Below are positions 7,720 to 63,397 of a stretch of 64,000 nt of DNA, in pieces. Origin of the DNA: Tubulanus polymorphus (taxonomy: Eukaryota > Animalia > Nemertea). The notes under the pieces are model-generated. The model had not been told where the DNA came from, ran no database searches, and saw only the letters and a list, made by a program, of their open reading frames with translations. The stretch covers positions 13,328,050 through 13,392,049 of the forward strand of contig NC_134026.1 of the NCBI RefSeq assembly GCF_964204645.1, in the 5' to 3' direction. Every line of letters begins with the position of its first letter. The first letter of the stretch is position 1. A program made the position numbers and the translations under genes.

Positions 7720-8300
7720 ACAACCGAATCTGAAGCATAAACCAAGGCACAAGATACTCTTACAATCTTATCTAATGTAGTGTTATCTGAACCAGAATTC
7801 TTAAGGAGGGAAATCGGAATTAAAGCTTTCAAGAATAATGTATTTTTGTCGCAATGTACCGATCATTCGCTCCACGTGTATACGCGCAGCTGCAATTGTC
7901 CTTGTCTTTTCGATATCCACTGCATCCAGTTGGTTCTCATTACGGGTGAATGCTGGTACCTGTAATGTTGTGCCTCGTGATGCGATATTTTCCTCTACTA
8001 CGAATCCTCTGTCGGCCAAAACCAATTGACCAGACATTAAGAAGTTAAGATACCCACCTGTGCTCAGTGATATATTTCTCTGATGTTCATCCTCCCCAGC
8101 CGTTTGAGATGAATGAAATGAATCCTCGCGGCGTGATACTTATGAAGGAATGTTACTGTATTATGGGATTTGTATGATGAATATGTCTGAGCTCTGGCCT
8201 TAAGATCACTTGGCCTTTCACAGATGAATGACATTTGGAAAAGGCCAGAAAACAAGCAGCGGTACCAATCGATCATTCATAACGTTAATTGTATCACAGA
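7720..8300 (-). mobile_element. ISL2EU/Harbinger-type DDE transposase fragment
   Basis: ERPSDLKARAQTYSSYKSHNTV and VLADRGF...PAF...QL...EKTRTIAAARIHVERMIG are motifs of the DDE_Tnp_4 family; frameshifted. Confidence 0.85.
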
Positions 8301-8342
8301 ATATTTGGGAGATATACATTAAAAATATATCCGAGAAACTGA

Positions 8343-10980
8343 TCATTCATTCATTCATTTAAATACTCCAGCACACTCGCATTCGCGAGTATTTTTTGGA
8401 GCGTGCGCGTCCGTGTTAGAAGAGAAAGAAAAAGAGTGTGCTTGGAAAATTCAATTAATAATAATAATAAAAGATACAATGTACATTTTAAAAACACTTA
8501 ATCGGATTTTGGAATAAATCTAGGGATATGTCACAGATACTAGCCTCCTGAAGGATTCAGGTGACTAGGTCAGGACAACTGATGCAGGGAGAGTATTCCA
8601 ATGGGCTATTGTTTTTGGAAAGAAAGAGTACTTGTAGCAGTCACGTGTTGCTCTTATGGTCATGAAACGGAGGGGATGGCCACGACCTGTGAGGCGCGTG
8701 GGTTGGGCCAGATTCGCAGGTAGGGGGACTGCCACAAGGCAGTAAACAATTTTATACATGAGTGTTAGTCGGCCTATAGCTCTGCGCTCATCGAGGGTCG
8801 GCCAGCCGAGTATGGCACTTAGGTGTCGAGCATGGCACTAACACTGGCTTGGGGGCTGTAATTGTCAAGGACCCACCGTGCAGCCCTGCGCTGTACTTGT
8901 TCAATGGTGCTGATTTGCGACTTGAGATAAGGGTCCCATGCAGCTGCAGCATACTCGAGCTGTGGGCGGGCAAGGGCCTTGTAAGCAGTCCCTCTGATTT
9001 TGGGGTTTGGTGTTTTGATATTACGTTTGATGAAACCAAGGGATTTATTTTGAGTTGTGGATATACGTGATACATGATGGTTCCACTTTAGCGAATGGTC
9101 GATGTCCACGCCTAGGTATCGTGCATAATACACCGACTGAAGTGTATGGCCATGTAGCATGTAGAATGTAGGGATGGGCTTTCGTGTGGTTTTATGGATT
9201 ACTTGGCATTTGGTGGGATTAAACTCCATATCCCATAGGTCCTCCCAGGCCTCAAGCCTTGTAAGGTCACTATGTAGTGTGTTCTGGTCTGTGGGTTTTA
9301 ATATTGTGAGGTAGATGGCAGTGTCATCCGCAAATAGACGGACACTGCTCTTCAGGCTTTTCGGGAGGTCGTTGATGTACATGAGGAAGAGTAACGGGCC
9401 CAGAACTGAGCCCTGTGGAACTCCTGATATTACCGGAATAGGAGAGGAATGTTCGCCAGATACAACGACTGTTTGGAAGCGGTGGGAAAGGAAGCATTTG
9501 AACCAGTCGACTGTTTTTGGCTCAACACCATGTTTTCTGAGCTTGTGGAGAAGTTTGTTGTGGTTGACTTTGTCAAAGGCTTTACTGAAATCTAGTAGGA
9601 TCTATCTGTTTGCTGGCCTGGGTGGTACGAGAATGGTCATCGATCAGGGAGATCAGTTGTGATTCACAAGATGATCTCTTCTCTCGGAAACCATGTTGGA
9701 GATCGTACAGAATATTGTTTCGGGCAAGGTGCGTGTTGAGATTTGAGACTATGATATGTTCCATCAATTTAGATAGGATGCAGGTAAGAGAGATGGGTCT
9801 GTAGTTTGCTGCTTTGGATTTGTCCCCTTTTTTGAAGATTGGGGTGACGAGGGCTGCGGTCCAGTCAGCCGGGAGTTTGCCAGAATCGCATGATGTTTGG
9901 AAAATTTTTGTGATAATTTGGGCCAATGCGCTATGGAGTTCTTTTAGTAGTCGAGGATGAATTTGGTCTGGGCCGCAAGCCTTTTCAGGGTTTAGGTTAC
10001 GCAGGAGGCGATCAACTCCTTTTCGTGTAAATGCTGGTTTGCCTTGGACTTCGGCGTAGACTATGTCGTGGTCTCCTAAGGGGGGTAAGGTGGTTACTTT
10101 GTTGACTAGTGTTGGGTTATTTGTTAGGAAAAGGTCAAGGGTATTATTGCCTCTAGTTGGCTGCGTAACTATTTGTGTGAGGCTGAAGTCATATATAAGG
10201 GTGATAAATTCCTCATAGATACCTTATTCTGACTATCATGGATTTTTGGTTCACAATCTTGCCATGAAATGTTTGGCAGGTTGAAATCACCAAGGATCCA
10301 GATATTATTATCTTTTGGTATTTTCGACAGGGATTCCCTAAGGTTGGCGAGGCTATTGTGGTCATTTTCTTGTGGTTTGTAGTATGCGCCATGAAGATGG
10401 GTTTGCTCCTAGTAAGTTGTAGTTTATCCCTTAGTATTTCACACTTAGTCTGCAGTTGGGGTTGGGCTGAACAGACAAGGTTTGGATAGCTACTCCCCCT
10501 CCACGTGTGTTGTTACGATCTAGTCTGAATGGGGTATATCCTAGGGAGGGAGGAAAAATTGCGCCATTTGCTTTATCTTCAGATAGCCAGGCTTCTGTGC
10601 CTACGACTATGTCCGGTTTAACGGAGTCCAGTAGTTGGTAGAAAGATGGAAGTTTGTTGTTGGTTGACTGAAAGGTTATATTAAGTACTTTCAGGGCTCT
10701 AGGTTGGCGCTGTTGATTCAAAGTATTTTTTATACATTTCTTGTGGAGATTTGAGAACTGATGGGGGGTTAGGTTCCGACCCTTTAATGGGGGTGGATGT
10801 GAGTGGTCCTTCAGTTTCATCTGCAAGTTCATCATCAGCGAGTAGGGAGAAGGAATTTGGAGAGGAAAAACTGGAAGAGGTAGAGGATGATGCAATTGGT
10901 GCATTAAAAATATCTGTAGTGATCGCTTAAGGATGGGGAGGAACAACCATATGGCACGATGTCGATTGGTCAAAGCCATG
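8343..10980 (-). mobile_element. CR1/L2-group LINE (endonuclease and RT, pseudogenised) inserted into the ISL2EU-type transposon
   Basis: KPDIVVGTEAWL...RLDRNNTRGGGV; PIFKKGDKSKAANYRPISLT...QHGFR; GVPQGSVLGP...YINDLP...RLFADD; YKYSFFPKTIAHWNTLP. A 3' hairpin and (TGAA)n tail lie at about 8343-8395. Confidence 0.92.
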
Positions 10981-11079
10981 CAGGCAGGCTAAGGGTTCGA
11001 AATGAAATTTGTTTTTAGATAAACATGTCTTATAAGTTGATAGATAAAACTTTACAGTCAATTAAACCCAAGGCCTACC

Positions 11080-16599: not shown

Positions 16600-17985
16600 A
16601 TAAAATATAACAAATATCAAAGAAACAACAGTTGCTGAGAATGCAGATTATGAAAATAAGCAAATTAATTGAATTAATTTCAAATAAGAAATATTGGAAG
16701 AAAGTAAAAAACATTTAAAAAATATGGAAAATATTATGAAAATAATTACAGATGAAGAATATCCAAGAATAAGTATAGATTCACAAGTTCAATTCAAAAA
16801 ATCAGAAGTTAAACCAATATATAATATTCAATCTAATTCACAACATATTATTTCAAAACAACATATCGTGATGATTTAGATAAATGTTATAATGACGTAA
16901 AAAAAAAATAGAAGAGACACATTTTGAAGGATCTGGTTTGATAATTGATGAAATTATATTTATGACTTAAAATTTTTAAAATACAAAATATGATAGATTA
17001 AGTTAATCAAAACCAATAGATGAAAATAATCTATTATATTATAAAGATGATAATATAAATGCACCGAGTTATATTAAAGTTACCATTTAAAACTAATGCT
17101 GTCATAAATGTACAATATTTTGATGATAAATGTTTATATTGTAAGTTGTTTACATCCAGCAAATCATAATATTTGTAGATTAACACACTATAAACAGTTT
17201 GAAAATAATTATAGGATAGATAATTTTCCTGTTAAAATTAAACCAATTCCAAAAATAAAAAGAGATAATAATGTGAAAATAAATGTATTCGATTTAATTG
17301 ATTACCAAATAAATATGGTAATAATATAAAACATTTTACATTTGAACCTTTAGAACCTTTATATTTATCAGAAGATTATGATAAAATGATGTTATAGATA
17401 TATTATAATTATAAAAAATGATTTTACGTGGATAAAAATATTGTTTTTTAGACTTTTTAAATTAAATTTTAATTCTGAAACAAGAAGCCCATGGGCCTTG
17501 AAGCATTGGTAGATTATACTTTGGTATTAAGTGGTTATAATGTTTTACATCTGCCGGCAAATCTTCTATGACGATGTTGATTGGGAGGACCACAGACTTA
17601 AAGGTCTATTTGTCTAGTACGATTTTATTCCTAAAAAAATGAATTTATTTTCTGCCGAACGATTTAGTCTAGGCTATTTCTACTGTTAAACAAAAAAAGA
17701 TTACAAAAAAAGGAATTAAACCTGAAAATCATTTTCATACATAAATTTTAATGGTTACTCAAGAAAATAAATTTAATTCTGTTATTCATTATAGAATGTT
17801 AAAATTCTATCTAAAACAAGCAATGATATTTAAAACAGTACATAGATATATTTCATTTTGTCAATCTAAATGGTTAGAAAAATATATAGATTTTAACACA
17901 AAACAAAGAACAATATCTAAAACAGATTAAGAAAAAAACTTTTTTTAATTAATGAATAATGTGTTCCACGAAAAAACATATGAAA
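16600..17985 (+). pseudogene. Polinton/Maverick A: protein-primed DNA polymerase B, N-terminal and central fragments
   Basis: Fragments EGSGL...APSYIK.PFK...INVQ..DDKC, then QSKWLEKYIDFNTKQR...LMNNVFHEKTYEN (motif B-like KLMNNxxxGKTxEN). Many stops and deletions. Confidence 0.8.
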
Positions 17986-19428
17986 ATATAGCTGCGAAGC
18001 AGCGATGACGGGTTTTCTGCAAAGCCATTCAGAAAGTTGGGAATTGTAGTAAATTGAAATATCGATACATAGAATCAAATGCATTGACAGATTCGAACCT
18101 AATATGCTACCACTGTGTAAACGTTAAATATGATCAGGTTTGAAACCGAACATACGCGGACGTACAATCAACAAATATTAATTTATTTGACCAGGCATTT
18201 ATTTTGGCATTCAAACATCATGATACTGTATTATCACCATGCTTAAAAATGGATCTGTCCTATTAAGAACTCATCTTAAGCACCTGCTGAGTCGATAGAT
18301 TGAGTGGATTTACAGATAAGAACGTATTATGATTTAGAATAGATTTAAGAAGTTAATGTTTTTATTGAAATATTTGAATAAATACATATATTGTAGTGTA
18401 GATTCAATCAATAAATTATGAATTGATCTGGTCTGGGTTTTCGGCTGATGTTGATTTTGGCTTTTATGGATTACAAATTCTATAGTGATAAACAATTGAT
18501 ACCTGCAACATGTCTGTAAATCAAACCTATTCCGCTAGTTGCGTGTGTTTCCTAATAAACGGTAGAGTCACTCTTGATCTGAGTTATTAGAAATATAATG
18601 TTCATTTAGTTATAGAAATTCATTGCCTTTTTGGAAATTCTGTAATAATATTTGTTCTGTCCCAATTTTTATTACTGTATGAACCAATGATATGCTTTGT
18701 AAATATGATGTAATAAAATAAATTTGAATTTGAATTAAATTTGAACATGAGAATCAAGCATAACTTGTGTTTTTTTCAACTTGTCTTTTGTTCCAGAGTT
18801 TCAATTACAATCAAATCCAAATTGGCTAAAAAATACATAGGACTAAATGAAATGAACCGTTAGTTACTGCAAACCTATTCCAGTGTTATGTCGATCGTGT
18901 TGAATCACTTTCCTTGAGTTGAAAGAATCAGATCTTCTATAGTGCAACATCGGTCGAAGAGAGATATCTTGGTGTTGACTCTCCTTGACCATCTAACTGC
19001 ATGCATTCGACATTGGAATCAGCATCATACCCATTTGAACTGCAAAATATTCATACAACATGAAAACCTACAGTACATGTATACAGTAATCAAACTTTCA
19101 CCGATGTTGGATATTTGAATGAACGTTGGGCTTATTTCAGTATTCTAAAGCAGGAAATAATAAGACCAATCAATAGGCCCTATTCCCATTGGAACAATTG
19201 TATAATGCATACGCTGTACCATCAGTCAGTCACTTATCAGTCAAGAATGGAGAAATCGGTATACCAAACCTACGAACAGCAAAATGTACAGGCCTACAAT
19301 GATTTCGGGTATACAAGCCGTGACCACATTGACTAATTATGTCAGCAGGTCAGAGAAGGCCTGGCCAAATTTAATCACATGACTCAAATCAATTAGCCTT
19401 TCTGCGTGTGAATACTTCACTGTATTGT

Positions 19429-23605: not shown

Positions 23606-23920
23606 AATATTAGAAATAGAAATGATATTGAAAAAGTTTGCAATGGAAAGAGAATTAGACATTTACAAACATATCCAAAATCTTTAGGAAATAGATTATT
23701 TGGTGAAAACTTAGCAGCAGTAAAAATTTAAAGATGAATTAGATCTAAAATTTATAGTTATACAACTAAAACTCATGAATCAATGTAATTGATCGGAATA
23801 ACAAAGCACGTTATTGAAGAAATGTTCATTTCAAAGATTATAGAAATTGTATTTTTAATGAAGAAACTAGCAATCATGAAATGAAATGTTTAAGATCTGA
23901 AGATCATGATATAATTCTCT
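23606..23920 (+). pseudogene. Polinton A pPolB continuation (C-terminal fragments, motif C deleted)
   Basis: IRNRNDIEKVC...LFGENLAAVK jumps to KFKDEL, SKIYSYTTK and HEMKCLRSEDHD, homologous to 60330-60590 on the minus strand. Confidence 0.75.
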
Positions 23921-24439
23921 AATAATATAATCCATACAATTTGTCTCCAATACTCCATTATATAATCAATTAATTATCCACTTTTGAACCATATATTAAG
24001 AAGAAAAATTACCATCTTCAAAATATTTTGTTATTTTAGTTTTAATTAATTCAACATTTATATTATCATTAGTTTCATTTTCATATATTTCAGTTATAAT
24101 ATTTTCTTTATCATCAAAAATAAAATCTTCGTCTAATTCATAACTTTAAAGATTTTCTAATAAAATCACTAATTATTTCTACATTATAAAAATTACTTTA
24201 TTTATAGTTGTTTCATAATTAAATGTAGTATTTTTAATATGTGTTATCACATCATTAATATCAAATTTCATTTCTTTTTCACGTTTGAAATCAAAACCAA
24301 AACATATACTCGTTCCAACAATAATATTCATATTTATATTGGGAGTAAAATTACACATTACATCTTTCATAAATTACATGAACATTATCCAAATCAATTA
24401 GATATCCATTATGATTTCTTATTTCAATTAGATATCCAT

Positions 24440-41959: not shown

Positions 41960-43313
41960 ATTTATATAAATTACATCTATATGAACCAAAATTATGAGAT
42001 TATTATTCACTAAGTAATGAACAAATGAAATATGAAATCACTTGGATTTTAGGTTGAACAGTTATTGTTATATTTGTGGCTGATAAATTAACAACTTAAT
42101 TGTGTATTAGTTTTTCTTTTATAAATGGAATAGAATTGATGGTATTGATATTATTCCGCATGATGTAAATGAATCTAATCAAAAATCATATTAAGAAAAT
42201 CAAATATTAGAATTTGAAAGTTTTTTGAGGATAAAAACAAATAAAAAAAAAGAAATCGCATATTATTTGATAATAAGTGAATCTGTTACAATTGGATCTG
42301 TAATAACATTTTAGCATTATTTTTCCCATAAACATTGGTGCTTTAAGATTATCATCGAGTGTTTTCACAGGAATAGGTTCAAAGTTACATATTAAGAAGA
42401 ATAAAGAAAGAATTAAGTCTTAAATAAAAGAAATTAATGAATTGAAAAATACATTGGATTATATAATAAGTTCGAATGGGAATATTACAATTGAAGAACA
42501 AGATAAGTTGCTAAAAGATATAGTCAATTACTAGTAATTTTTCTATTATAACTTATTAAATACCTTAAAATATAAATGACAGATAATTTCCAAAAGCTTT
42601 TGTTTTTAAATTCATTAATGAATTTAGAAATCAATATTCTTCAAACTGATAATTTTATTTCTAAAATGGAAATTATATTTGATATGAAGTTACTTTTACT
42701 CGGGATGAATATGATATTTGGAAAATAAAATCTAATACGATATACTAACAGAATCAATTCAATTTTGAGATGTATTGCGCAACAACAGGTTGTGGTATAA
42801 GTTAGAATAATCATAAAAATAATTAAGATAAACTTTTAAATTAGTCTGGTTTAAAATTTATTCATACTATATTTAGATTCCATACATATTTTAAATTAGA
42901 ATCATATTAAATGAGTTAAATGGTCCTTTCCCTGGATCAAAATATTTTAATGAAATAAATATCAATATTAATCTATCTAAGTTTTATATAGTATATAATG
43001 AATTTGATATGAATATAAATAATTCTGACTTTTGAGCGTATGGTGAATTACATGGTGTTGGTGAACAGTTTATAATATAGGTAATTGATTATATGCACAG
43101 AGCTGAGCTTATCATCATTATGAAATTGATAATAATTGAGGCTGGGTTAATTTTATCTTAGAAAATAGTGAATGTTTTACAAAATCGGGTATACACAGAA
43201 TGAATAAATCTATTACATTGTATTTAATTTGTATTTTAGGCACACAAGTTGAAACAAGATCGCCAATGATTGGAAACTAAAATACTTCATTTGATGCACG
43301 AAAACAATTTAAA
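41960..43313 (+). mobile_element. Polinton/Maverick B remnant
   Basis: Collinear with the reverse complement of about 57130-58560: DIIPHD...QILEFE, NGNITIEEQDK, YCATTGCGIS, LNELNGPFPGSKYF, CILGTQVETRSP. Cut by a HINE at 43314. Confidence 0.8.
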
Positions 43314-45165
43314 ATATAGCTGCAAAGAAGCGATGACTGGTTTTCTGCAAAGCCATTCTGGAAATACCCATAAATAGAATAAAATGCATCGACAGATTCG
43401 AACCTAATTTGCAACCACTGTGCAAGCATCAAATGTGATTCAGCTTTGAAACCGAACATACACGCGCATACAATCAACATATATGAATTTATTCGACCAG
43501 GCATTTTTGGCATACAAACATCATGATCCTGTATTATCACCACGCTAAAAATGGACCTGTCCTATTAAGAACTCATCTTAAGCACCTGCTGAGTCAATAG
43601 ATTGAGTAAATTAACAGATAAGAACGTATTATAATTTGGAATAGATTTAAGAAGTTAATCTTTTTATTGAAATATTTGAATAAATACATATTGTAGTGTA
43701 GATCCAATCAATAAACAATGAATTAATTTGGTCTGGGTTTCGACCGATGTTGATTTCGGCTTTTATGTTTTACAAATTCTATACTGCTAAACAATACCTG
43801 CAACATATGCGTAAATATCAAATCTATTCCAGTAGTTGCGTGTGTTTCCTAATAAACGGGAGAGTCACTCTTGATCTTAGTTATTAGAAAAATAATGTTC
43901 ATTTAGTTATAGAAATTCATTACCTTTTTGAAAATTCTATAATAATATTTATTCTGTCCTAGTTTTTATTACTGCATGAACCAATGATATGCTTTGGAAT
44001 TAAGGTGATGTAATAAAATAAATTTGAATATGAGAATCACGCATAACTTGTGTCTTTTCAGCATGTCTTACTTCTCGTTAACAGTTCCAGAGTTTCAATT
44101 ACAATCAAATCCAAATTGGCTAAAAAGTACATAGGACTAAATGAAATGAACTGTTAGTATCTGCAAACCTATTCCAGTGTTATGCCAATCGTGTTGAATC
44201 ACTTTGATTGAGTTGAAAGAATCAGATCTTCTATGGTGCAACATCGTTCGAAGAGTGATATCTTGGTGTTGACTGTCCTTGACCATTTAACTTCATGTGT
44301 TTGACATTGGAATCAGCATCATACCCATGTGAACTGCAAAATATTCATACAACATGAAAACTTACAGTACATGAATACAGTAATCAAACTTTCACCGATT
44401 TTTTGATATTTGAATGAACGTTAGGCTTATATCAGTATTCTAAAGGCGGGCGTAGGTCGGCCTTGCGACGGCTTGCGACTCACTGCGACCGCCGGCGACG
44501 ATCGCGTCGCAACGAGCAACCGACCTACGCTACCTTGCGACTGCCAGCGACGGGTTGCGACTGCCAGCGACGCCAGTCGCAATGAGTCGCACATGTTCTA
44601 CTTTCTGCGACGCGACGCGACCGTCGCAACCGACCTGCGCGCTCTTGCAACTGGCAGCAACTAGTCGCTGACAATCGCGTCGCAACCGACTTACGACGCG
44701 AAGCAACGCGACGATCGCGTCGCGTCGCAAGGACGACCTACGCCCGCCTTTAAGCAGGAAATAATAAGCCCAATCAATAGGCCCTATTCCCATTGGTACA
44801 ATTGTATAATGCATACAGCTGTACTGTACACTTATCCGTCAAGATTGGAGAAATTGGTATACAAAACCTATGTACAGCTAAATGTACAATGGCCTTCAAT
44901 TTCCGCGACCACATGAACGTTTTGGATCTAGGTTTGACTATTAATGTCAGCAGGTCAGAGAAAGCCTGGTTAAATTTAATCAAATGGCTCAAATCAATTA
45001 GCCTTTCTGCCTGTGAATACTACACTGTATTCTTTTGATAATATCGAGTGAATAGTGCATAGACTGAATTAGACTTTTGGCTAGTCCCGATCATATCCTA
45101 TCATATCGTAATTACCTGATACTTGTCTGTCGTTTGTTTTCTCTCTGAGTCGAACGTAATTCTAG
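43314..45165 (-). mobile_element. HINE family A copy, missing its hairpin end
   Basis: Starts ATATAGCTGCAAAGAAGCGATGACTGGTTTTCTG and aligns closely with 17986-19670 and 20430-20480. Confidence 0.88.
44444..44749. mobile_element. GC-rich palindromic MITE (PIF/Harbinger-like, TWA flanks)
   Basis: TIRs AGGCGGGCGTAGGTCG and CGACCTACGCCCGCCT. The empty site TTCTAAAGCAGG is seen in the sister HINE at about 19143. Confidence 0.88.
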
Positions 45166-47060: not shown

Positions 47061-48995
47061 ATTAAACTCATTAAACTCAAAGAGTCAAATCTTAACTCGG
47101 ATCTGTGGTTAACGTCTAAGACACCGGTTTATCAATACCGGTTTATGAACCGGTATGAACAAAGGCCATCTCGCAGCAAACCGAAAAGATTTGTACAAAC
47201 CGATTTCAAACAAATTGGCCTACCTACCTGACGATATTACCAAACCTGCATAACTCTACGGTATTTTTGCAAGTATAATCGCATTATTTTTTGCACGTCT
47301 GCGATTCTATGTAAAATATCACCAACTATGCGAATGTAAGAATCGACACGATAGTAAAGAATCGCATTATTTTTGCGCGTATGCGATTGTATGAATATCA
47401 CCAACAATGGCACAACGTATCCAATCCGTGACGAAAAATCAGTTTCTCCGCAAACATATTCCGATACCAAAATACAGCGTTTTTGTATACATTCTGGGAT
47501 CATTTCCAAAACTTTTAAGAATACCTATAAATGAACCATTTTCACTGTTATTGCCATCTTGATATTTGGGCATCATTAATTTGCAAACATCCGTCTTATC
47601 ATATAGATTTTTGTCTTTTAGTAATGCATTTTCAGATCTAAATTTTGATGATATTTCATGAATATTAAAATCACTTTCTGTCCTAAAATATAAATCTATT
47701 TGTTTTTTTTAACCACATTTAATGTTCATTTTCATCTTTTTTATAGTATAATAGATCTATCAGATTTTCACCATCATATTTTTCTCTTAAATATAAAGCT
47801 TCTAATTATAATTGCATTAATTCGAATACATTTATTTTTAAATTATTAACTTTTTCTACTTTAGGAATCAATTTTATAGTTTCTGCATATTGATCAATTT
47901 TATATAATATTTCATATATCCGATAATCTGCTATTCTGCAAACAATTTTCCTCAGCAGGGTGTTAACAACAAATAATTGACCACAAAGACATTTATTATC
48001 TTCATTTTGAACATTTATAACTAACTGTTTTTTAAATAAATGGTAATTTGATATATGACGATGCTTCAATATCCTTTTCTGTTGTACATTTTGAATCATT
48101 AGTAATCATTTCATCACTATTTGATATTTTATTCCTTTTTGTATTGTAAATATTTAAATATAAAAATATGATTTCATTTAACGTTAAACCAGAACCCTCA
48201 AAATATCTTTCCTCAATATGACGCATAAATTCATTTAATATTTATTTCTAATTTCTCTTTTATTTGTGTTTTTGAAATTATTTCTTCAGAATGTGTTTGA
48301 ATATTACAATCCATTTTTTTATTCATCTGACTTAATAAAACTTAAAGAGCAAATGCCATCAAAATAGAATATTGTGTAAAATTCATTTTCAAATGTGATG
48401 TATTCACAAATATCAAATATGGAACTGGTTTGAATTTTAGTTCAGCCATTACTGAGAAATATCACTTTTAAATCGGAAATTTCAGCACGAGCTCACTGTT
48501 ATTGTTTATGTTAGCAGGTGTGTGTTTCTGACGTCATCTCTGACAAACGCTCGCCGCTTCCAGTCATTTCACTAGACATTTCATGCGGTATTTTATCGTT
48601 TTAGGAGTGATTTGAATAAATAAATTCTTGCCATTGTTAGTGTTGCTACCGTTGTATTATGCCATGATAATCGTATATAAGTGAGTAGCACTGTAGGTCA
48701 GTGAATACGGTGAACAAATGATGTTTATTTTATCGATTATACATAGGCTACGCGTACTAGCGCACACATGTGCTAGTGTTGATTGTCATAGTTAACATCA
48801 TAAATAGCGCCACCCGCGGGTTGAATATGAACTATACGCACGGAGTGAAGGATAAATAGATAACTATTCCACTAACTATTACGGCTTATTCGTACTCCTT
48901 TTTTCAATAAGTCACATCTCAGGTCGCTATATGTATACTAAAGTTTCTTCTGGTTAAGAAATCGGGGAAAGTACAATTTTGATGACTACCTTTAA

Positions 48996-50769
48996 GGTAG
49001 GGGCATATGAACGTATTTTTTCGCCCGATCGCGGCGAATTTATAAATCGCCCGAAAAATTCTTTCGTGTGGCCATTCACGGCGACGACGATTTCGCGGCC
49101 GACTCGATCGCCCGGCGAATCGCCGTATCAAACATGTTTGATATTTTGCCCCGATTATTTACGCCGGGGATCGAATAGTCCGCAAAATCGATCGTCTGCC
49201 CGCAATCCATTTTTGTTGATATCGTGTGATTTGTTAAAGGGTAACTGACACTTTTTTTTATTTCAAAATATGATGTATTCTATTGATCTATACACTCATC
49301 TTCAACCGTTCTGTTCCAAAATGTTTAGTTTACGCGCAATTTGTGATTTTGTAACAAGATTTTTGACCTCATTTCGTTGTTTACATCGCTTACTGTTCAG
49401 CGTCGGCTAAATCAGCAGGTGCGCGCTGCAACGTCATTACAGGCAGAGCTGAGAAATAGCGTCTATAGAAATGCGTTGAATTTTGAGGAAACTGCGTGTA
49501 TTTTCTGTTATATCTCAATGCCAGATTGTTTTACAGCCTTGAAACTGGCCAGGGAGGTAAAAGGATCTATTGTCTATTGCATAAACCTATTTCAAAGAAT
49601 CAATGAGTAATTTGAATAGGCAAAATCGATCAAATTGAAGATGCAGATTTCAATCCGCTGCTATGAAGCTATTAAAGTACACTATGCTAAGCTCTCAGCA
49701 CTGTTACTGTTGCTGCATAATTCACCTATAGTTCAGCACAACAAGCATACTACACAGTGTCTTATAAGCGATCACAGATTTCGATCTCGCTAAAGAATAA
49801 ATAGATTCATATTCGTTTACTATTTACTATTTTTCATAGTCATTTAAGACTAAGTAGTTTGAAAACTAACACTTCAAAACTCTACAAAAACTTTCATAAA
49901 TTTCTACAGCCTTTACAACAAATATTCAAAGGAATAATGTTTTTCGATTAAAGTTTCACGCTGCAGAAGAGTTTTGATAGATTACATCACAAATCTTAAA
50001 CAAACATTATTTCGAAGTTTTAAAATAGGATGGATGAGGAAATATTCTAATTTTGTGACCAAAGCCGCTACCAATACGAGGTATATTTCAAGAAAAGAAT
50101 TGAAATTGTTCTTGCGGCTAATTCTGTCTAAGTTTCATCAGTTCATAAGTCAAAATATTCTTAGATGTAACCATGATCTTACTATCACTAAATGATAATA
50201 CAAAACGATGATTTAAACATCCGTGTTCCTGGCTGTCTACTAGAAAATGCCATGGATTGCTATTCAAATCCTATTTTTGCGCTTAGTTTGAACGGATATG
50301 GTCCGTTCAACAGCTAATTATAATCATTAATATGTAGACTTTCAAAATCAAGAGACATTTTGTCTGAATTCGAATGCCAAATAGGTATAAAATTAAGTTG
50401 AATTGCTCTTGTAGCTTAATCATTTCCGAGCCGTCACGTACTTTAGTGACGTAGTTCTATTAATAGGCACAGTACCACGCGTTCAGCAGAAGCAATGTAT
50501 ACACTGAACAGGTGCGCGAACATCAAAATCATCAATTCTGACTAGATTGAAAAGATTTTTCCAATTATGAAATCACCTAGCCTTATTGTATAGTATAATA
50601 TATCGTTTAGTGTAAAAAGTAGAAAACCTTTAAAAAAGTGTCAGTTACCCTTTAACTCTCTTACTAAGTGGCGGTCGCACCGAATTCAGGTTTGATCGCT
50701 ACGTAAGGCGTGAAAATTCGCCAGCGAATTTTATCGTCGCGATCTGGCGAAAAAATATGCTCGTCTACC
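48996..50769. mobile_element. TIR element (GGTAG ends) containing a nested Kolobok-like element
   Basis: GGTAG...CGTATTTTTTCGCCCGATCGCGGCGA is inverse to TCGTCGCGATCTGGCGAAAAAATATGCTCGTCTACC; TTAA/TTTA flanks. Confidence 0.65.
49238..50651. mobile_element. Non-autonomous Kolobok-like element with TTAA TSD
   Basis: TTAA|AGGGTAACTGACACTTTTTT...AAAAAAGTGTCAGTTACCCT|TTAA. RR...YY termini with a TTAA TSD are characteristic of Kolobok. Confidence 0.8.
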
Positions 50770-51589
50770 TTTACTTTTCTGAAAGATTTATTTTTGGATA
50801 TTCAACATCTGTTAAAAATCCATTATTTTTTTCCATTATATCAATAAATTTACTATAATCTTTTATTGTTGTCCCTTTAAAGAATTTAAGTTGCAGGACC
50901 AATTTTACTACGAATTGTTTCTGAAATTTCAATTGTATGTTTTATTTCTAATCAACCAATATATTTTCTAACATTTTCCATACAATAATTATTTGAAATA
51001 GATTCAGTTTTTTCAATAGAATTTTTTACTTGAGAATTATCATCAAAATATTCTGTTCCTAAAATATTCATACTTAAATTTTGTTGATGTTTTTGTGATA
51101 TCTATCATAATTCCTTTTTGTTTCAAATTCATTACAAACTTCACATTTGGTTTCATCTATTTTCATGTTCTTTAATTGTTCTTTTCTTTCCCTGGAATTT
51201 TCTGGAAGTTTCTATATAATCTATAACATGTTTTACAGTTTTTTCATGTCGAGATTTTTGGGATTTAATAGTGTATTATTTACAATATGGTCAATAATAT
51301 TCATTTTTATTAACATAATTTCCATCATCTTTAAACTCTTTCCCATTTTACAAGGAAACAAATTATGATGAGTGATGTGTCGAACTCTCGACCTCTGATC
51401 TGAAAACGCCATTTTGTAAATGCTGTATCATCAATATATAAAAAGTCCACTTGTAAATTCGACAGCAAATGTTGTACAAATCTACTTATGTTGTGTTTAC
51501 GTTAGTAGACCAAGATGACGTACACGAACTCAAAACTCCGTTCAATACTAATAGATTTAGCTTTATATAATTTCCAGATGTTTTAGCTA

Positions 51590-52080
51590 ACATTTCAACC
51601 TATGAGTTTTTTTCACAACAATTTTTTAAATTTTTGATATTAATTTCTTCTATTTTATAAAATAGCTGTTTAATGAATAAATGTGCGTCACAACCACTTA
51701 AAAAATAATAAAAAATTATGAAATATAACAGGAACAAAATAAATCTTTTTAGCTTGTAAATTACAATGTTCATGTGCTGCACCTCTAAATCTCGCCATTT
51801 AAATGATCACGATCTCTAACTTTCTTATCAAACGAATAAAATACTTTTTCACAATAAAAATATTTATCTGAAAAATTAAATTCTTCTTCATCATCTTCTG
51901 TCATTATAATTTCTATATGTGTACTAAATTTCGTTTCATATTCAATTAACAAGTCCCAAAAATTAATAGCATTTTGAGATCTATAATTATAATATTCACT
52001 TTCAATTAATTTTGGGTAATCTGAATTCATATATAATCCGAAAGCTGCAGCACTTTGATGAATTCTCATCTAAATACAAA
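51590..52080 (-). pseudogene. Polinton pPolB middle fragment (endonuclease VII-like/exonuclease region) from another copy
   Basis: MTEDDEEEF...YCEKVF...KVRDRDHLNGE...AAHE and LSGCDAHLFIKQL (NLSGYDAHLFIK-like) match typical Polinton pPolB. Confidence 0.75.
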
Positions 52081-54234: not shown

Positions 54235-54555
54235 GTTGCAACTAGAATTTAACTAGAATGTTACTAAAAATATACTAGATTAACAAGCTAGTAGAAATAT
54301 TAATGTTTTTATTTATTTCTTGTTCAATTTTATTTCTTTTTTGATTTTATATTTGATATTTGTTTTGAACTACCAATAACTAGAATTCAACTAGAATGTA
54401 ACTAAAAATATACTAGATTAAGAAGCTAGTTGAAATACTATTGTTTTTATTTATTTCTTGTTGAATTTTATTTGATTTTTGTTTCAACTACCAATAACTA
54501 AAGTTTAACTAGAATGTGACTAAAAATATAATAGATTAACAAACTAGTTGAGTTT
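54235..54555. repeat. Internal ~120-140-bp tandem repeat of Polinton C (about 2.5 units)
   Basis: ACTAGAATTTAACTAGAATGTTACTAAAAATATACTAGATTAAC-like units at about 54241, 54378 and 54497. Confidence 0.8.
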
Positions 54556-54787
54556 AAATAAATTCATATTTAAATGGGTGTTGTAATCGAAATAGTATTT
54601 TTGACCTTTTATTATTTTTCAATTTATCCATATATTCATTATGTAAATCATGTGGAATAATAACATTATCAAAATAGTTTTTATAAATAGTTTCTAATAA
54701 ATTTAATATAAAATAAGTTCTTCCACAATTTGTTACACCAGAAATTAACATATTATGAGGTTCAAATATAAATAATTCTTTATTCAT
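54554..54787 (-). pseudogene. Polinton packaging ATPase (A32/FtsK-like), internally deleted
   Basis: EPHNMLISGVTNCGRTYFILNLL (Walker A GxxxxG[KR]T) fused directly to a C-terminal tail; adjacent to the integrase. Confidence 0.75.
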
Positions 54788-54809
54788 TTATATATTTTTA
54801 ATTTTACTC

Positions 54810-55750
54810 GATAATATCCATTCATTGAATTTATTTACTAAAGAATATTTTTTTCTATTATCAGTTTTTGTTTTTAATTCTTTTTCAATTCTATATTCTT
54901 GTTCTAGATTTTCAGTAGTTAAACTTAATTCTTCTTCATAAAAGTACCCATCAACTTCTTCACCATCTAAATCTTCTAATTTATGGACATATGGTTTTGT
55001 TGTTATTACCTTTTTTATTTTATATATTTCTCTATTAAAATTACGATCGTATCCTTTGTCAAATACTTTTTATACTAGAAGAATGATAAGAATTATTGTA
55101 ACCTTCTATCAATTTTGGTAAAATATCAATCCATTTAAAATTATCATTTGCTGTAAAATATTTCCACATTCTTGTTGTTCATGTTCTATTAAATCTTTCA
55201 ACAACTGCTGCTTTTTTATCCGATTTTGTTGAAAAATATTCAATATTAAGATAATCTAAGAGTTCATGAAAAGATGAATTATCAAATTCTTTACCATCAT
55301 CAAATTGTATTTTTTCTGGCTTTATTTTACCACCTGACAGAAATTTTCTTTAAAAATGTAATGTTTGTACAGCATCTTTTCTGTAAAGTGGGAAGCTCCA
55401 TACATAACGACTAAAAATATCAATTATATTCAATATCCACCAATAATCATCATTATCTTTTTTAGGATTTTTCATATCAATCATATCAATTAAATCTCCT
55501 TGCCACTGTTGATCTACATAACTTACCATAGTTTTACGAGTTTTATATTTTCTAACAATTTTTCTATGTGTTGTATATGTTGGTTGTTCTAACATAAAAT
55601 CATTTATACTTTTATATTTAACTACATTTTGTGGGATTATCTTATCTAATTTATCTTGTTTTACTTGACGCCATACATTTTTGGTAGAAGAATAAGCAAC
55701 TGAACTCTCAGGGTTATCATATTAATTTCTTAAATATTGTTCTTTATCCT
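54810..55750 (-). pseudogene. Polinton retroviral-like (rve) integrase
   Basis: YTTHRKIVRKYKTRK...QWQGDLIDM...IIDIFSRYVW...QFDDGKEF...KAAVVERFNRT; DDE triad present, frameshifted. Confidence 0.9.
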
Positions 55751-55779
55751 TAATATTGAATACTATCTAATTGAGAATT

Positions 55780-56760
55780 TATAATATTTAATTGCGCGTC
55801 AGATATAAGATAAATATGCATTTTATAATTTAAACCTCCTTATATCTTTTTCATGAATAATTGTATTTCATCTTTTGTGTTCTGCAGCTTTCTCCCAGAA
55901 CCATTTAATAAGTTATCTTCAGTTGATCTAAAATCCAACCATAATGCATATTTATTGCCGGTATAATAATCAATTTGATTAATATTACAATCCTCAGTTA
56001 GTTTACTTCTTTCATTCATAAAATAATCTCTAATTTCTGGCCACTGATCAATCATTCTCATTCCCTGGCAAAATATTTTATTTGCTATACCTTCAATTGT
56101 TATTTCTACTTTTGATATTTCAGGATTATAATATTTATCAACTTTTATTGCACCATTAGAATATGTTGCAATGGTTAAAAGTATTAATATAACTTTAATA
56201 GATCCTCTTGGGAAGTTAATATTCTCATTAATATTTCATCATTTGCACTAATAGTTACAGTTTTAAATTCATCAATATAATTTTATAGTAATGAAAATCC
56301 TTGGTTACATTGAGTTTGAATTGTGCTCGCAATATTTTCATCAGTTACTGTATCATATTCTAAACATATATTTGATAATTCATAACCCATATCTTTAACA
56401 ACGCTAGATCGCACAATTTCATTAACAAGAGTAAATGTTATTTCGAATATAATATCCTCTTGTATTGCATTATTATTTATCAATTCAAAATCTAATGGCA
56501 TTTATATTTGCTTCCATAAATCTTTTTAATCAAATTATCTGCAGCATTATCTACTTAATCATTAGCGTCTTATCTTAATTTATTTTGATTTAAGGATTGG
56601 ATGCCTTGAAATATCATATTTTTTCTATTTTCTTTTTCTATTTTCTATTTTCTTAAATAAATTATAATCATCTAATGAAAAAACTGTTTCTGGTCCAATC
56701 TTTATAATTAATTTTTTAATTAAATATCTTCCAAAATTAGCTACAGCATAATTATTTTCA
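55780..56760 (-). pseudogene. Polinton major capsid protein (double jelly-roll/hexon-like)
   Basis: YELSNICLEYDTV, YNPEISKVEITIEGIANKIFCQGMR, YALWLDFRSTEDNLLNGSGRKL and CIFYLISDAQLNI match, by recall, the capsid gene of invertebrate Polintons/adintoviruses. Confidence 0.7.
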
Positions 56761-56771
56761 AATAATTGCAC

Positions 56772-59630: not shown

Positions 59631-60259
59631 GTGATATTTTGTAATGAATGTGGTTGGCAAAAAAATTTATGGGGTGATGAAAAAACTAGAGATATTCTTA
59701 TGGAATCAAAATTAAAATATCTAGATGAAATTTTTAAGATATTTTCTATGGAAGATCATACACCAGAATATAAGCAATGGCTTGAAAAAATGAAAATGAT
59801 AGAAAATAAAAATGGTGAAATAACTAAGAAAGATATAATAAAAACAATTATTCCATCAACATGTAACACAAAAGAAAAGAAAATGTATTTATATTTATTA
59901 TTTAACGATTATTATAAAAAAAACCTTAATTAACAAAAGAAAATATGGAAAATATAAAAGAAACATTCACAAACATATTAAAATATTATGTGGATAATAA
60001 AATAACAGATTTTATCAATTATGAATTCTTTTTAAATAAGATTGTAAATTTTTTAAACATCGATATTATAATTCCATTTGATGAATTAACAAACAAAAAG
60101 AAACAAAGAAAGCGAGATGAAATGTGGAATGATATAGAATTTTATTTAAATGAGAAAAATGAAATGGAAGAACCTAAAGAAATTATAGGAAAACAATTTG
60201 ATGAATGTGAAGAAACCAATAGTGATTTCGAATATGATGATATTGATTTTCTGTTTTGA
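59631..60259 (+). CDS. Two small Polinton C hypothetical ORFs (59631-59933 and 59945-60259)
   Basis: Open frames of 100 and 104 aa convergent with pPolB; the first has a CxxC motif (CNECG). No family recognised. Confidence 0.4.
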
Positions 60260-60717
60260 TGGCCATAAGGTAATGTTTTTATTCCATCACCCAAAATCTA
60301 TCTTTTAAACTAGTTTTTTCAAGATTTAAACTAGTTTTTTTCAACTTCATTAATGTACATCTCGTGGTCTTCTGATCTTAAACAATTCATTTTATGTTTC
60401 ATTACAATTGAGTTATATAAACACTTTATATAATCTTGATATTCTATATGATTATCAACCACATGTTTTGTTATTCCTTTTAACTTTTTAGCTTCATGAT
60501 CTTTTGTTCTATAACTATACATTTTACTTCTTATCCCAATAAATTCAATCATTTCATCACCCCCTAATTCATCTTTAAATTTACCAGGCTGCTTTTTATT
60601 ATCATTGCTAAATAATTCATGATCTTTTGGATAATTGCTAAAATCAAAATGATGTTTTAATGTTTTTAAGTCTTTTGTTATGTCATTTGTCTTGATTATT
60701 AGTATGTACGCATCCGT
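60240..60717 (-). pseudogene. Polinton C pPolB C-terminal part, from motif C onward
   Basis: TDAYILIIKTNDITKDL...FDFSNYPKDHELFSNDNKKQPGKFKDELGG..MIEFIGIRSKMYSY...KLKGI...DGIKTLPYGH. Confidence 0.92.
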
Positions 60718-60975
60718 ATGGACTAGGATTAATGGAAACCCAGAATTGAATGTTCCATCTTCAGTTGATAAATCATAAACATAATCAGTTGGGTTATATA
60801 TTTCAAATAAATCTTAAACTTCTTCAGTTAACTCATTTTCTACATAGCTTGAATTAAAACAAAATACCATACCATTTTAAAATACCATTTTCCTAAATTA
60901 TGTTTTGCATTTAATACATAATCTTGCACTATACGAGTAAAATCCCACAATAAAAGAATTAGATGATAAAATGTT
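60718..60975 (-). other. Intein C-terminal remnant (blocks F/G) in frame with pPolB motif C
   Basis: In-frame NPTDYVYDLSTEDGTFNSGFPLILVH directly precedes TD(S>A), in place of the usual LLYxD. It matches the intein block F consensus VYDL[ST]x3-5F. Confidence 0.72.
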
Positions 60976-62150
60976 TATTAAAACATATAAGAAATATTTC
61001 GGGTGGTTACTACCACCCTTCTTCAGTCTAAAATGACTTGCCAAATACAGTATTAATACATGAAATATGAAATAAGACACGAATCGCTGCACATTACGTT
61101 ATGGAGACTAGAGCACTGACATAACTTGAAAGAAGTTTATTATGGGGGCTGAAACCATTATTTAGTTTGACAGAACGATCGGAATGAGTAGTAATTAAAG
61201 CAGATTCAACTATATGTCGTTTAGTGCGACTACTGTTGGAAAAGATAATATTGGCTCTAGAAAAATCAAAATTGTGTCCGGTAACCAAAGAATGGGAGAC
61301 TACCCCACTTTCTAATTTAACCCCATTAAAAAAATCTCGTTTATGTTCTTTAATACGATCCTTAATATTCCTACCGGTTTCCCCAATGTAAAAAAGGTTA
61401 CAATCAGAACAGTTGATTTTATAAACATCACAATGGACATTAGGGTTCAGATTGTTATTGGAGCAAAAATTAGAAATTTTCTTATTATACTTGAAAATCA
61501 AATAAGTATTCAAATGACGAAGAGCCGGTTTGAATTTGTCAAGGCAAGGGACAAAAGGAACTATAATTTTGTTTTTGGGTTTTGTTTTTGAGTCTAGGTT
61601 GGGCAGGAGAAAAATACTTTTTTGGCTTTGTGAAGGGCTTTCACTAAAATCTTGTCAGGGTATGCAAGTTTTTTGAAACTTGATTGAATATGTAAAATGT
61701 CATGTTCTAAAAAGTTTTTATCACAAATCCTATGAGCCCGAAGGAAAAAACCTTGAACAACGGCCACTTAAAGGTAAGTTGGAGTGAACGAGAAGAAATG
61801 TAGGTAGGATTCACAGTTAGTAGGTTTACGAAAAACAGAGAAACCTAATCTCGAATTAGAATTATGTATGAGAACATCCAGAAAAGGGCATTTTCCCGTC
61901 AACTTCAAGGAAGGATAAAAGGAATTGAGATATGTCAAAAATAATTCAAGGTTAAAATCAGTTGATACTAAACGTCAAATGTCATCAACATACCTGAGCC
62001 ATAGAAGAGGCGCGAACCAAGTGTATAGGGGTAAAATTTCCGATTCAATATGTTCTAAGGAGAGGTTAGCTAAAATCGGCGAGAGGGGGTCAACCATAGC
62101 GAAACCATATATTTGCTCAAAGAAAATGCCATAACATTGAAAATAGTAAA
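60975..62150 (-). mobile_element. 5'-truncated Penelope-like retroelement (RT C-terminus and GIY-YIG endonuclease) inserted in Polinton C
   Basis: GFAMVDPLSPILANL, WLRYVDDI, FSVFRKPTNCESYLHFFS and GIY-YIG VYKINCSDCNLFYIGETGRNIKDRIKEH. Confidence 0.92.
60991..61032 (-). ncRNA. Minimal hammerhead-like motif at the Penelope 3' end
   Basis: CUGAAGA-A-GGGUGG(UAGUAA)CCACCC-GAAAUAUUUC. The helix III region is a perfect palindrome; helix I is weak. Confidence 0.6.
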
Positions 62151-63397
62151 ATCTTTTATGTAATAATTCATCTCCAAAATGAATTTAAAAAAAGCAAAAA
62201 AGCAATTTAAAAAAGCAAAAAAAATACTTTAAATTCTCGCGTTGTACTAACATTACAGTAACTTAAATTTGCTGATATTTTATCTCCATATTTAGTTTTT
62301 ACCTTTTCTAATTTTAATATTTTATGATCAATTTCTTTTGTTACATCGACTAACTTTTTCAAATTGTCTTTTTGCTGGTGTTATTCTGTTATTTATTGTC
62401 GCTAAGAATCTCCCATTTACTGCTTGTGATGATGAGTGGTGTGTCGCCCTCTCGTCCTCTCCTCTGAAGCCCTGATTTTCCAATTACTTCCAGCTATCAG
62501 TGGCGTTTCGTGAATCGCGTTTACAAGTAGATGCGGATGGAGCGGATACCAAGTCCAACACCACACATGGGGAATTATTTGTTATGGCCAATTACAATTT
62601 TCTATTCCGAACGTTCCAATTACCCCACGAGTGTACTTATAATGAATAAATAACAATGGGTATGAAAGAGATGATTTTTAGGGATCAATAGTTTAAAAGG
62701 GAAATATATCTATACCGTTATTGGTGGCTCGCACCTCAGCGGTCACCTAGCACTTGGGTGCAAATATCGCTGTATTAAAGCATTTCTCGCAGTTTAACTG
62801 GTTCCTTCGAGCTCTGGTCGTTGGATGTTTCGGATCGTGGGCCATAGGAACATGTGTTGTAAGTTGGAAATTTTACTGTATTTTTGTCACTTTGAATTTA
62901 TACTTTAGTAGCTAGTGCAACTGAGAAATGTAGTATTTTACGTGGTTTAAGGCACTTTCGTTACCTATTATTAACGTGTATTCTTATTTAGTTGTTAATT
63001 AGACCGAAGTCGTTTTCAATTGTGTTACCTTCAAAGTAACGCCATACTTGGCAATATTTGCTATTAAGTCTGTTTATTGCATGCATTCTTTGAGACGTTA
63101 TTGTTCTAACATCAATGTCTTTAGCTTAGTATTTATCAAGGGAAATAAAGATTAATACATCATTATTCACCAACAAGACGCGTTAATCAATTATGGTCGG
63201 GGATTGCCATCGCCCACTATACCACCCCACGCCCCCCCCCCCAACCCACACACACACCTAATACGAATCCGAGGATCCAACAGGGTACTAATGTGAATGA
63301 ATTTAGATTTTCATATTCAAACATCCTTAAGATCGGCCTGCATTTTTAATGGGACACCCAGTAATAAAGATCATATATTGGCCAATCAGGGTCTTAC

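Follow-up and report, generated by a model that had tools for sequence, protein, structure and literature searches.

A LAGLIDADG intein remnant at motif C of a decayed Polinton DNA polymerase and its probable kinship with giant-virus-type inteins

The closest described systems to the locus reported here are the motif C inteins of giant-virus family B DNA polymerases (PolBs), such as those of Mimivirus (P0338) and ChoanoV1 (P0369), which sit at the YxD|TDS site. Inteins have also reached eukaryotic nuclei inside viral genes: according to the part of PMC10710043 available to us, intein-bearing viral DNA polymerases occur in the nuclear DNA of Klebsormidium, Tetrabaena and a labyrinthulomycete. 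A September 2026 preprint (10.64898/2026.09.14.751524) places inteins, in its accessible portion, everywhere except in the nuclear genomes of multicellular metazoans, and the accessible portion of a 2018 survey (PMC5784728) lists no metazoan intein; four further papers (PMC12220804, PMC5718144, PMC3671162, PMC13768754) treat inteins in general terms in the parts available. For the protein-primed polymerase (pPolB) of Polintons, the available text of Krupovic et al. (PMC11071308) proposes that its nuclease domains derive from intein invasions and describes no splicing domain, and that of Jeong et al. (10.1101/2023.08.22.554363) mentions neither intein, Hint nor LAGLIDADG. The word intein is absent from the main texts of the Polinton papers PMC8502044, PMC11131425, 10.64898/2026.06.19.733378 and PMC8097293, vertebrate, coral and PLV surveys among them. 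In the open-access PMC and bioRxiv articles that we searched, no Hint/LAGLIDADG intein is reported from a Polinton pPolB or from the nuclear DNA of an animal.

In the window, by which we mean the whole 64,000-nucleotide stretch of DNA analysed, a minus-strand ORF (60813-60334) spans an intein/extein junction at 60718|60717, just as the initial annotation had read it, with the +1 Thr codon at 60717-60715. On sequence grounds, the segment upstream of this junction is the C-terminal end (blocks F and G) of a LAGLIDADG intein placed at motif C (YxD|TD) of a Polinton pPolB (Table 1). Window positions 60858-60724 match intein residues 308-352 of P0005, a pPolB with an intact intein, at 58% (E 4e-12 in the window), and the F/G piece is 67% identical to P0157 over 45 aa; with both proteins it is collinear across the junction. 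From 60717 onwards, the frame encodes pPolB from motif C, 72-82% identical to the intein-free proteins P0001-P0004, a match limited to the extein part. In these empty relatives, YFD stands directly 5' of TDS. Over the columns of the extein tree described below, the window extein is 83% identical to intein-free P0001/P0121.

The proposed intein identity was checked with a custom HMM. For this, 198 inteins were extracted from 250 proteins, the 5 Polinton ones were taken out, and the model was built from the remaining 193 motif C inteins, all of non-Polinton PolBs. Its sole significant match in the six frames of the window was 60828-60718 (iE 1.1e-5; next 0.28), and the 32-aa window piece scored 23.6 bits, whereas none of 1000 shuffles exceeded 2.8. 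Taken alone, the piece (30-33 aa) is too short for Pfam and NCBIfam, neither of which returned a match. The profile comparison foreseen in the initial annotation was therefore borne out by the PolB-intein model, while the general libraries stayed silent.

A second remnant, in another frame, corresponds to residues 45-61 of P0157 (65% over 17 aa, E 0.001 for the whole window). In the alignment across the scar that separates the two remnants, P0157 residue 61 falls at 60879 and residue 115 at 60858, and the net deletion between the endonuclease-domain remnant and the F/G piece is about 140 nt; contigs of other copies diverge from the window around this scar, at 60884 and at 60841-60862. In the window copy, blocks A and B and both LAGLIDADG motifs are gone, the endonuclease domain is down to 17 aa, and neither the P0005 comparison nor the custom HMM recovered an intein piece in the window beyond the two remnants. 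The terminal Asn is absent as well, which makes the window copy a remnant; it is dead, unable either to splice or to cut. The initial annotation had reached the same verdict from the missing Asn, upstream stops and the loss of the N-terminal part at a Penelope junction, and that verdict holds; its position for the junction, 60975, needs correction. At 60931, 278 raw reads diverge from the window, which fixes the junction near 60931/60932.

Table 1. Coordinates in the window of the intein remnants and of the neighbouring mobile-element features
Feature	Coordinates	Strand	Remarks
C-terminal intein remnant (end of endonuclease region, blocks F and G)	60718..60858	minus	In-frame stop at 60816-60814; terminal Asn absent
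Second intein remnant, part of LAGLIDADG domain just 5' of its second motif	60879..60929	minus, other frame	P0157 match
Internal-deletion scar	60859..60878	minus	About 53 codons of the relative P0157 reduced to 20 nt
C-extein: pPolB from +1 Thr of motif C to C-terminus	60260..60717	minus	Open to 60334, then three stops
Penelope-like retroelement, 3' end abutting the intein remnant	60932..62150	minus	GIY-YIG ORF 61654-61094, PF01541 E 2.5e-5, over cut-off
VLTF3-like ORF of Polinton, convergent with pPolB	59930..60259	plus	PF04947 E 2.2e-6, over cut-off
Putative major capsid protein gene, fragmented	55840..56771	minus	PF16903 Capsid_N E 0.036 on 56771-56628, under cut-off, weak
Retroviral-type integrase, fragmented	54788..55721	minus	PF00665 E 4e-4 and 0.03, under cut-off
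A32-like packaging ATPase fragment	54554..54787	minus	PF04665 E 0.004, under cut-off

The element around the window intein is, by its gene content, a decayed and truncated Polinton. The protein-primed family B polymerase is documented by the identity of the extein to full-length pPolBs and by PF03175 on P0005, P0278 and P0293, and the integrase, capsid and ATPase fragments lie together at 54554-56771, each below its Pfam cut-off. The VLTF3-like ORF, of poxvirus type, is a further gene type in common with large DNA viruses. In the Penelope-like element, a degraded reverse transcriptase (RT) was read by eye upstream of the GIY-YIG ORF, and its far boundary is approximate.

Elsewhere in the window, this Polinton group has left additional pPolB fragments, likewise decayed, at 16694-18080 (+), 23606-23970 (+), 47565-48317 (-) and 50768-52069 (-); the piece 23627-23818 skips motif C, so that its intein state is unreadable. 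An inverted partial copy (41968-43317) of the Polinton segment 58549-57119 is 78-84% identical to it, and a short dispersed repeat occurs both where the Polinton remnant ends on its far side (53039-52883) and past the Penelope element (62221-62487). A Harbinger-like DDE_Tnp_4 fragment adjoins a fragmented LINE reverse transcriptase at 7801-10988. The sole possible host exon seen is a candidate 124-nt phase-1 exon (AG...GT) at 40937-40814 (-), whose product would be a small module rich in Cys; its TILa and PSP94-like leads are weak (Pfam E 0.058; Atlas score 0.76), and it has no match in the PDB. Exon, tRNA and Rfam scans of the window gave nothing of use.

The lesions of the window copy can be set against other copies in its own species. 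The region is partly present in four sequencing runs of the window's species, all from one study (share of words 0.06-0.20). A genomic run from 2026 with the same species label (about 12% of it read) was aligned together with three contig sets to 59800-61600 at 80% likeness. Since few of the aligned raw reads are 99% alike to the window (112 of 5527), most come from other copies. Raw-read depth, which is not copy number, falls from about 490 on the extein side of the junction to about 170 on the intein side, and 136 reads diverge from the window at 60708, near the junction; the two observations together are as expected with mostly empty copies and a minority of filled ones. The data thus point to both filled and empty pPolB copies in the window's species. 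Moreover, 82 of 92 raw reads are unlike the window at the last intein codon and 164 of 170 at the stop 60816-60814, indicating that these lesions are private to the window copy.

Both intact and intein-free relatives, as the initial annotation had predicted, were found in public data. A search for longer relatives of the window ORF gave 141 matches among 473 candidates, 120 of them listed, and P0005 covers 99% of the query. The intein is rare among relatives of the window extein: the site is filled in one of the 120 matches listed, empty in 113 and unscored in 6. One of the empty-site pPolBs, P0006, has a C-terminal PF01712 extension (presumably a deoxynucleoside kinase), possibly a fusion or a read-through.

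P0005 is a pPolB of 1693 aa that carries, where ordinary collinear polymerase sequence would have spoken against an intein, a 354-aa insert between YGD and TDS with Pfam matches to Intein_splicing and LAGLIDADG_3. Altogether, at least five intact and two partial pPolB inteins were found. P0005, P0278, P0279, P0280 and P0293 are full pPolBs in which inserts of 337-354 aa separate the motif C Asp from the Thr-Asp-Ser that follows, which agrees with the site and the Thr nucleophile given in the initial annotation; the empty relatives have YxD there. Ser1, the block B TxxH, two LAGLIDADG motifs with Asp, the block F Asp, the terminal Asn and Thr+1 are kept in all five. The full motif set was confirmed in P0005, P0278 and six members of its cluster, P0279, P0280 and one member, and P0293, and both LAGLIDADG Asp residues are kept in each of the 12 full-length sequences checked, cluster members counted. 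At the penultimate position they have His, Lys or Ser, the Lys being found in the Mimivirus and ChoanoV1 inteins too. With PF14890, P0278 scored over the cut-off (37.7 vs 35.8) and the other intact inteins matched below it.

Structure prediction agrees with this assignment. Modelled from a 38-row alignment, the P0005 intein has a Hint fold with an inserted LAGLIDADG domain (pLDDT 92.5), and its top PDB matches are the homing inteins TliVMA, PI-PkoII, PI-PfuI and PI-SceI (E 4e-18 to 6e-11). By sequence, the nearest solved structure is PI-PkoII. A single-sequence fold of the P0278 intein (pLDDT 34) was discarded. Among predicted viral PolB entries, the P0005 model matches those of a phycodnavirus, Pandoravirus, Marseillevirus, Megavirus and Heterosigma akashiwo virus.

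Searches with the P0005 intein showed in what company it occurs. One gave 2058 representatives (150 listed) and a second 1232 proteins (120 listed). The matches listed comprise 249 distinct proteins, namely 6 pPolBs (P0157, P0278, P0279, P0280, P0293 and P0343), 213 RNA-primed-type PolBs (rPolBs) and 30 unassigned. A contig scan with the P0005 intein found 37 loci, 17 of them named as giant-virus bins and none with pPolB, and a metagenome scan found 62 loci, one with pPolB (L038). Of the 99 loci fetched, 76 carry an rPolB and 22 are unassigned, the remaining one being L038, which is the same as P0343, a second filled copy with stops inside the intein. Viral contigs gave no relative of either full-length protein, P0005 or P0278, and none of the P0278 intein, phage records gave two weak intein matches only, and nine further pPolB clusters and the P0278 cluster held no new intein-bearing member among those listed. 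Several giant-virus-type PolBs (P0129-P0136, P0281-P0292 and others) carry two or more related inteins and reach lengths of up to 2800 aa.

The initial annotation suggested kinship with giant-virus PolB inteins and a phylogeny as the way to examine it. In a quick, unrooted IQ-TREE analysis of 78 rows (7 Polinton inteins and 71 of the 193 others, 45 of these picked by likeness to Polinton inteins), all seven Polinton inteins fall on one side of a branch with SH-aLRT 99, inside a likewise 99-supported group with 40 rPolB inteins including that of the Mimiviridae ChoanoV1. They therefore sit among giant-virus-type inteins, and the suggested kinship is upheld. The window piece, compared with 199 C-terminal ends, is closest to P0157 (67%) and then P0005 (58%), and it groups with both. 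One tested locus of the viral relatives lies in a giant-virus bin with capsid genes. The simplest reading, and a likely one from these trees, would be one capture from a giant-virus-type polymerase. From the unrooted tree and the relative abundance of the two kinds of host polymerase, we infer that the transfer ran from giant virus to Polinton. The giant-virus donor is putative, because the sister group of the Polinton inteins also has phage-like polymerases (P0139 and P0176, phage-like by eye). Among the closely related motif C inteins P0139, P0176, P0327 and P0345, the polymerases look phage-like or bear an archaeal MAG name; phages, along with giant viruses and Polintons, may therefore be among the carriers of this intein family.

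How the intein spread among Polintons was assessed on an extein tree of 84 rows and 154 columns, from which the first 12 residues past the site were omitted; 8 candidates without a recognisable site had been dropped before dereplication. Intein presence requires 6 changes on this tree, at least 4 of them forced by strong branches, and the intein label is no more clustered than in shuffles (93 of 500 as low). P0293 stands out: it shares 42-49% identity with the other Polinton inteins in the intein and 24-30% in the extein, where it has a very long branch, and its PF03175 score is strong. The available part of the class description by Starrett et al. (PMC8502044) suggests that P0293 belongs to the Alpha class and the other filled pPolBs to the Beta class. 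The evidence goes a step past the initial annotation, which proposed one carrier Polinton lineage: it supports movement of the family between Polinton lineages, so that the intein would be no one-off capture into this one.

At closer range, the P0278 cluster (136 members) provides copies for comparison. Its 15 members listed, each from a contig of its own (57 kb to 1 Mb in length), divide into 7 filled copies, 5 empty ones and 3 fragments; the filled and empty exteins are 94-98% identical. The differences between filled and empty copies are concentrated at the insertion site: 8 of 22, 8 of 26, 8 of 31, 9 of 35 and 8 of 64 lie within 12 residues of it (binomial p 7e-9 to 7e-5, for copies of one family that are non-independent). 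By comparison, six other filled copies have 0 differences within 12 residues of the site. This is the pattern that co-conversion would leave upon homing from a different Polinton. We would note that a similar picture could result from a single recombination long ago or from selection favouring empty sites that are resistant, and that a patchy distribution can also arise by repeated loss.

Class 1 inteins splice by an N-O acyl shift, transfer to the +1 residue and cyclisation of the terminal Asn, after which the exteins are rejoined. In the intact Polinton inteins, Ser1 is predicted to undergo the N-O acyl shift, the N-extein would then be transferred to the +1 Thr, and cyclisation of the terminal Asn would let the Asp-Thr-Asp of motif C be rejoined; the polymerase is thus predicted to be active only after splicing. 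The LAGLIDADG endonuclease, for its part, would cut other Polinton copies at their empty motif C site; repair off a filled copy would then import the intein with some of its flank. A multi-copy element would supply empty targets within one nucleus, which may be why the intein persists in Polintons. We are fairly confident in the core proposal, that the window holds the decayed tail of a motif C LAGLIDADG intein whose family probably goes back to one capture from a giant-virus-type polymerase and is predicted to splice and to home into empty Polinton copies. The joint reading, that working inteins reside in animal genomes after one jump from a giant virus and act as a gene drive among germline Polinton copies, crossing the two main polymerase classes, seems to us evenly poised between right and wrong.

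A more conservative account keeps the intein and gives up its mobility: it would have entered this Polinton branch once, been inherited vertically and been lost many times, with homing at an end. The account draws on the fact that 6 of the 7 intein-bearing exteins share one 22-row clade (SH-aLRT 98), and on the similarity of intein (42-50%) and extein (45-51%) identities among P0005, P0278, P0279 and P0280. Against it stand the unequal identities of P0293 in the two parts, the coexistence of filled and near-identical empty copies with differences clustered at the site, the retention of both LAGLIDADG Asp residues in all full-length sequences, and the window extein itself, which is nearest to empty proteins. 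On balance, we see little chance that this account is right. That no intein is involved at all, the piece being ordinary polymerase sequence, a chance match or a Hedgehog/Hint fragment inserted beside the Polinton, is scarcely credible. It could appeal to the blank Pfam and NCBIfam scans and to the absent terminal Asn; yet the piece is collinear with P0005 and P0157 across the junction, its HMM score is far above all shuffles, the empty relatives have YxD at this point, and an endonuclease-domain remnant lies just upstream. Hedgehog/Hint or bacterial intein-like domains, which lack a homing endonuclease and interrupt no conserved enzyme, were rejected given that in the relatives a LAGLIDADG domain is present and motif C of the polymerase is interrupted, and the intact relatives likewise dispose of a chance match or ordinary polymerase.

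It is also conceivable that the intein is real and mobile but its host is no animal: the Polintons could be integrated in the genome of an alga or protist, or the DNA could stem from a cobiont that was assembled along with the rest. Adintovirus-like PolBs do occur in non-animal eukaryotes too (PMC8502044, in the part available), the accessible text of PMC10710043 describes intein-bearing viral polymerases on nuclear scaffolds of algae and a labyrinthulomycete, and most of the intact relatives are known as contigs only. Several leads within the window argue otherwise. Decayed pieces of LINE, Harbinger-like, Penelope and Polinton elements make up its mosaic, and its LINE RT has relatives of 54-62% on many Mb-size contigs. 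The one LINE RT match with an organism name lies on a MAG of Ca. Thiodiazotropha, a clam symbiont, and is for this reason probably host DNA. The TILa and PSP94-like leads of the candidate exon, weak as they are, are of animal type. We regard a non-animal host as unlikely, and continue to favour a mobile intein family in animal Polintons.

If this is true, a homing intein in Polintons of animal nuclear DNA would break the rule of metazoan absence, with the proviso that it resides in a viral-type gene and no host gene. It would further be the trace of a meeting, within a single cell, of a Polinton with a giant-virus-type polymerase gene, and of homing across two very different polymerase classes with only a short motif in common. 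Homing between lineages would serve as a marker for Polintons meeting as infectious viruses, and the presence of filled and empty copies in one genome makes intein homing directly testable from existing assemblies.

The intein is thus of a known kind, in a host gene class that is new and a host kingdom that is probably so. Its Hint and LAGLIDADG architecture is shared with the archaeal PI-PkoII, PI-PfuI and TliVMA and the Neq polymerase split intein (NEQ068), from which the Polinton inteins differ in identity (13-18%) and in that the archaeal host genes are prokaryotic. Closest are the giant-virus PolB inteins, the nearest of them at about 40-44% identity. Those of Mimivirus and ChoanoV1 share with the Polinton inteins the YxD|TDS site, Ser1, Thr+1, block B, two LAGLIDADG motifs and a similar size. 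Unlike them, the Polinton inteins form their own long-stemmed clade, and the polymerase that hosts them is protein-primed and belongs to a small element that integrates, whereas the viral PolBs are RNA-primed. With Polinton/Maverick elements and animal adintoviruses, as described in the available part of PMC8502044, the window element has pPolB and putative integrase, capsid and ATPase remnants in common; it differs by its intein, unmentioned in the main text of that paper. The HNH/VSR insertions, in the accessible portions of Jeong et al. (10.1101/2023.08.22.554363) and Krupovic et al. (PMC11071308), are likewise nuclease domains within pPolB. They are fixed domains, whereas the Polinton intein is complete, splits catalytic motif C and has empty alleles. 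Finally, the cases in the available part of PMC10710043 resemble the present one in that an endogenous viral polymerase gene brought an intein into the nucleus of a eukaryote; there the hosts are non-animal and polintons are unmentioned, whereas the Polinton carrier is a multi-copy element in which filled and empty copies exist side by side.
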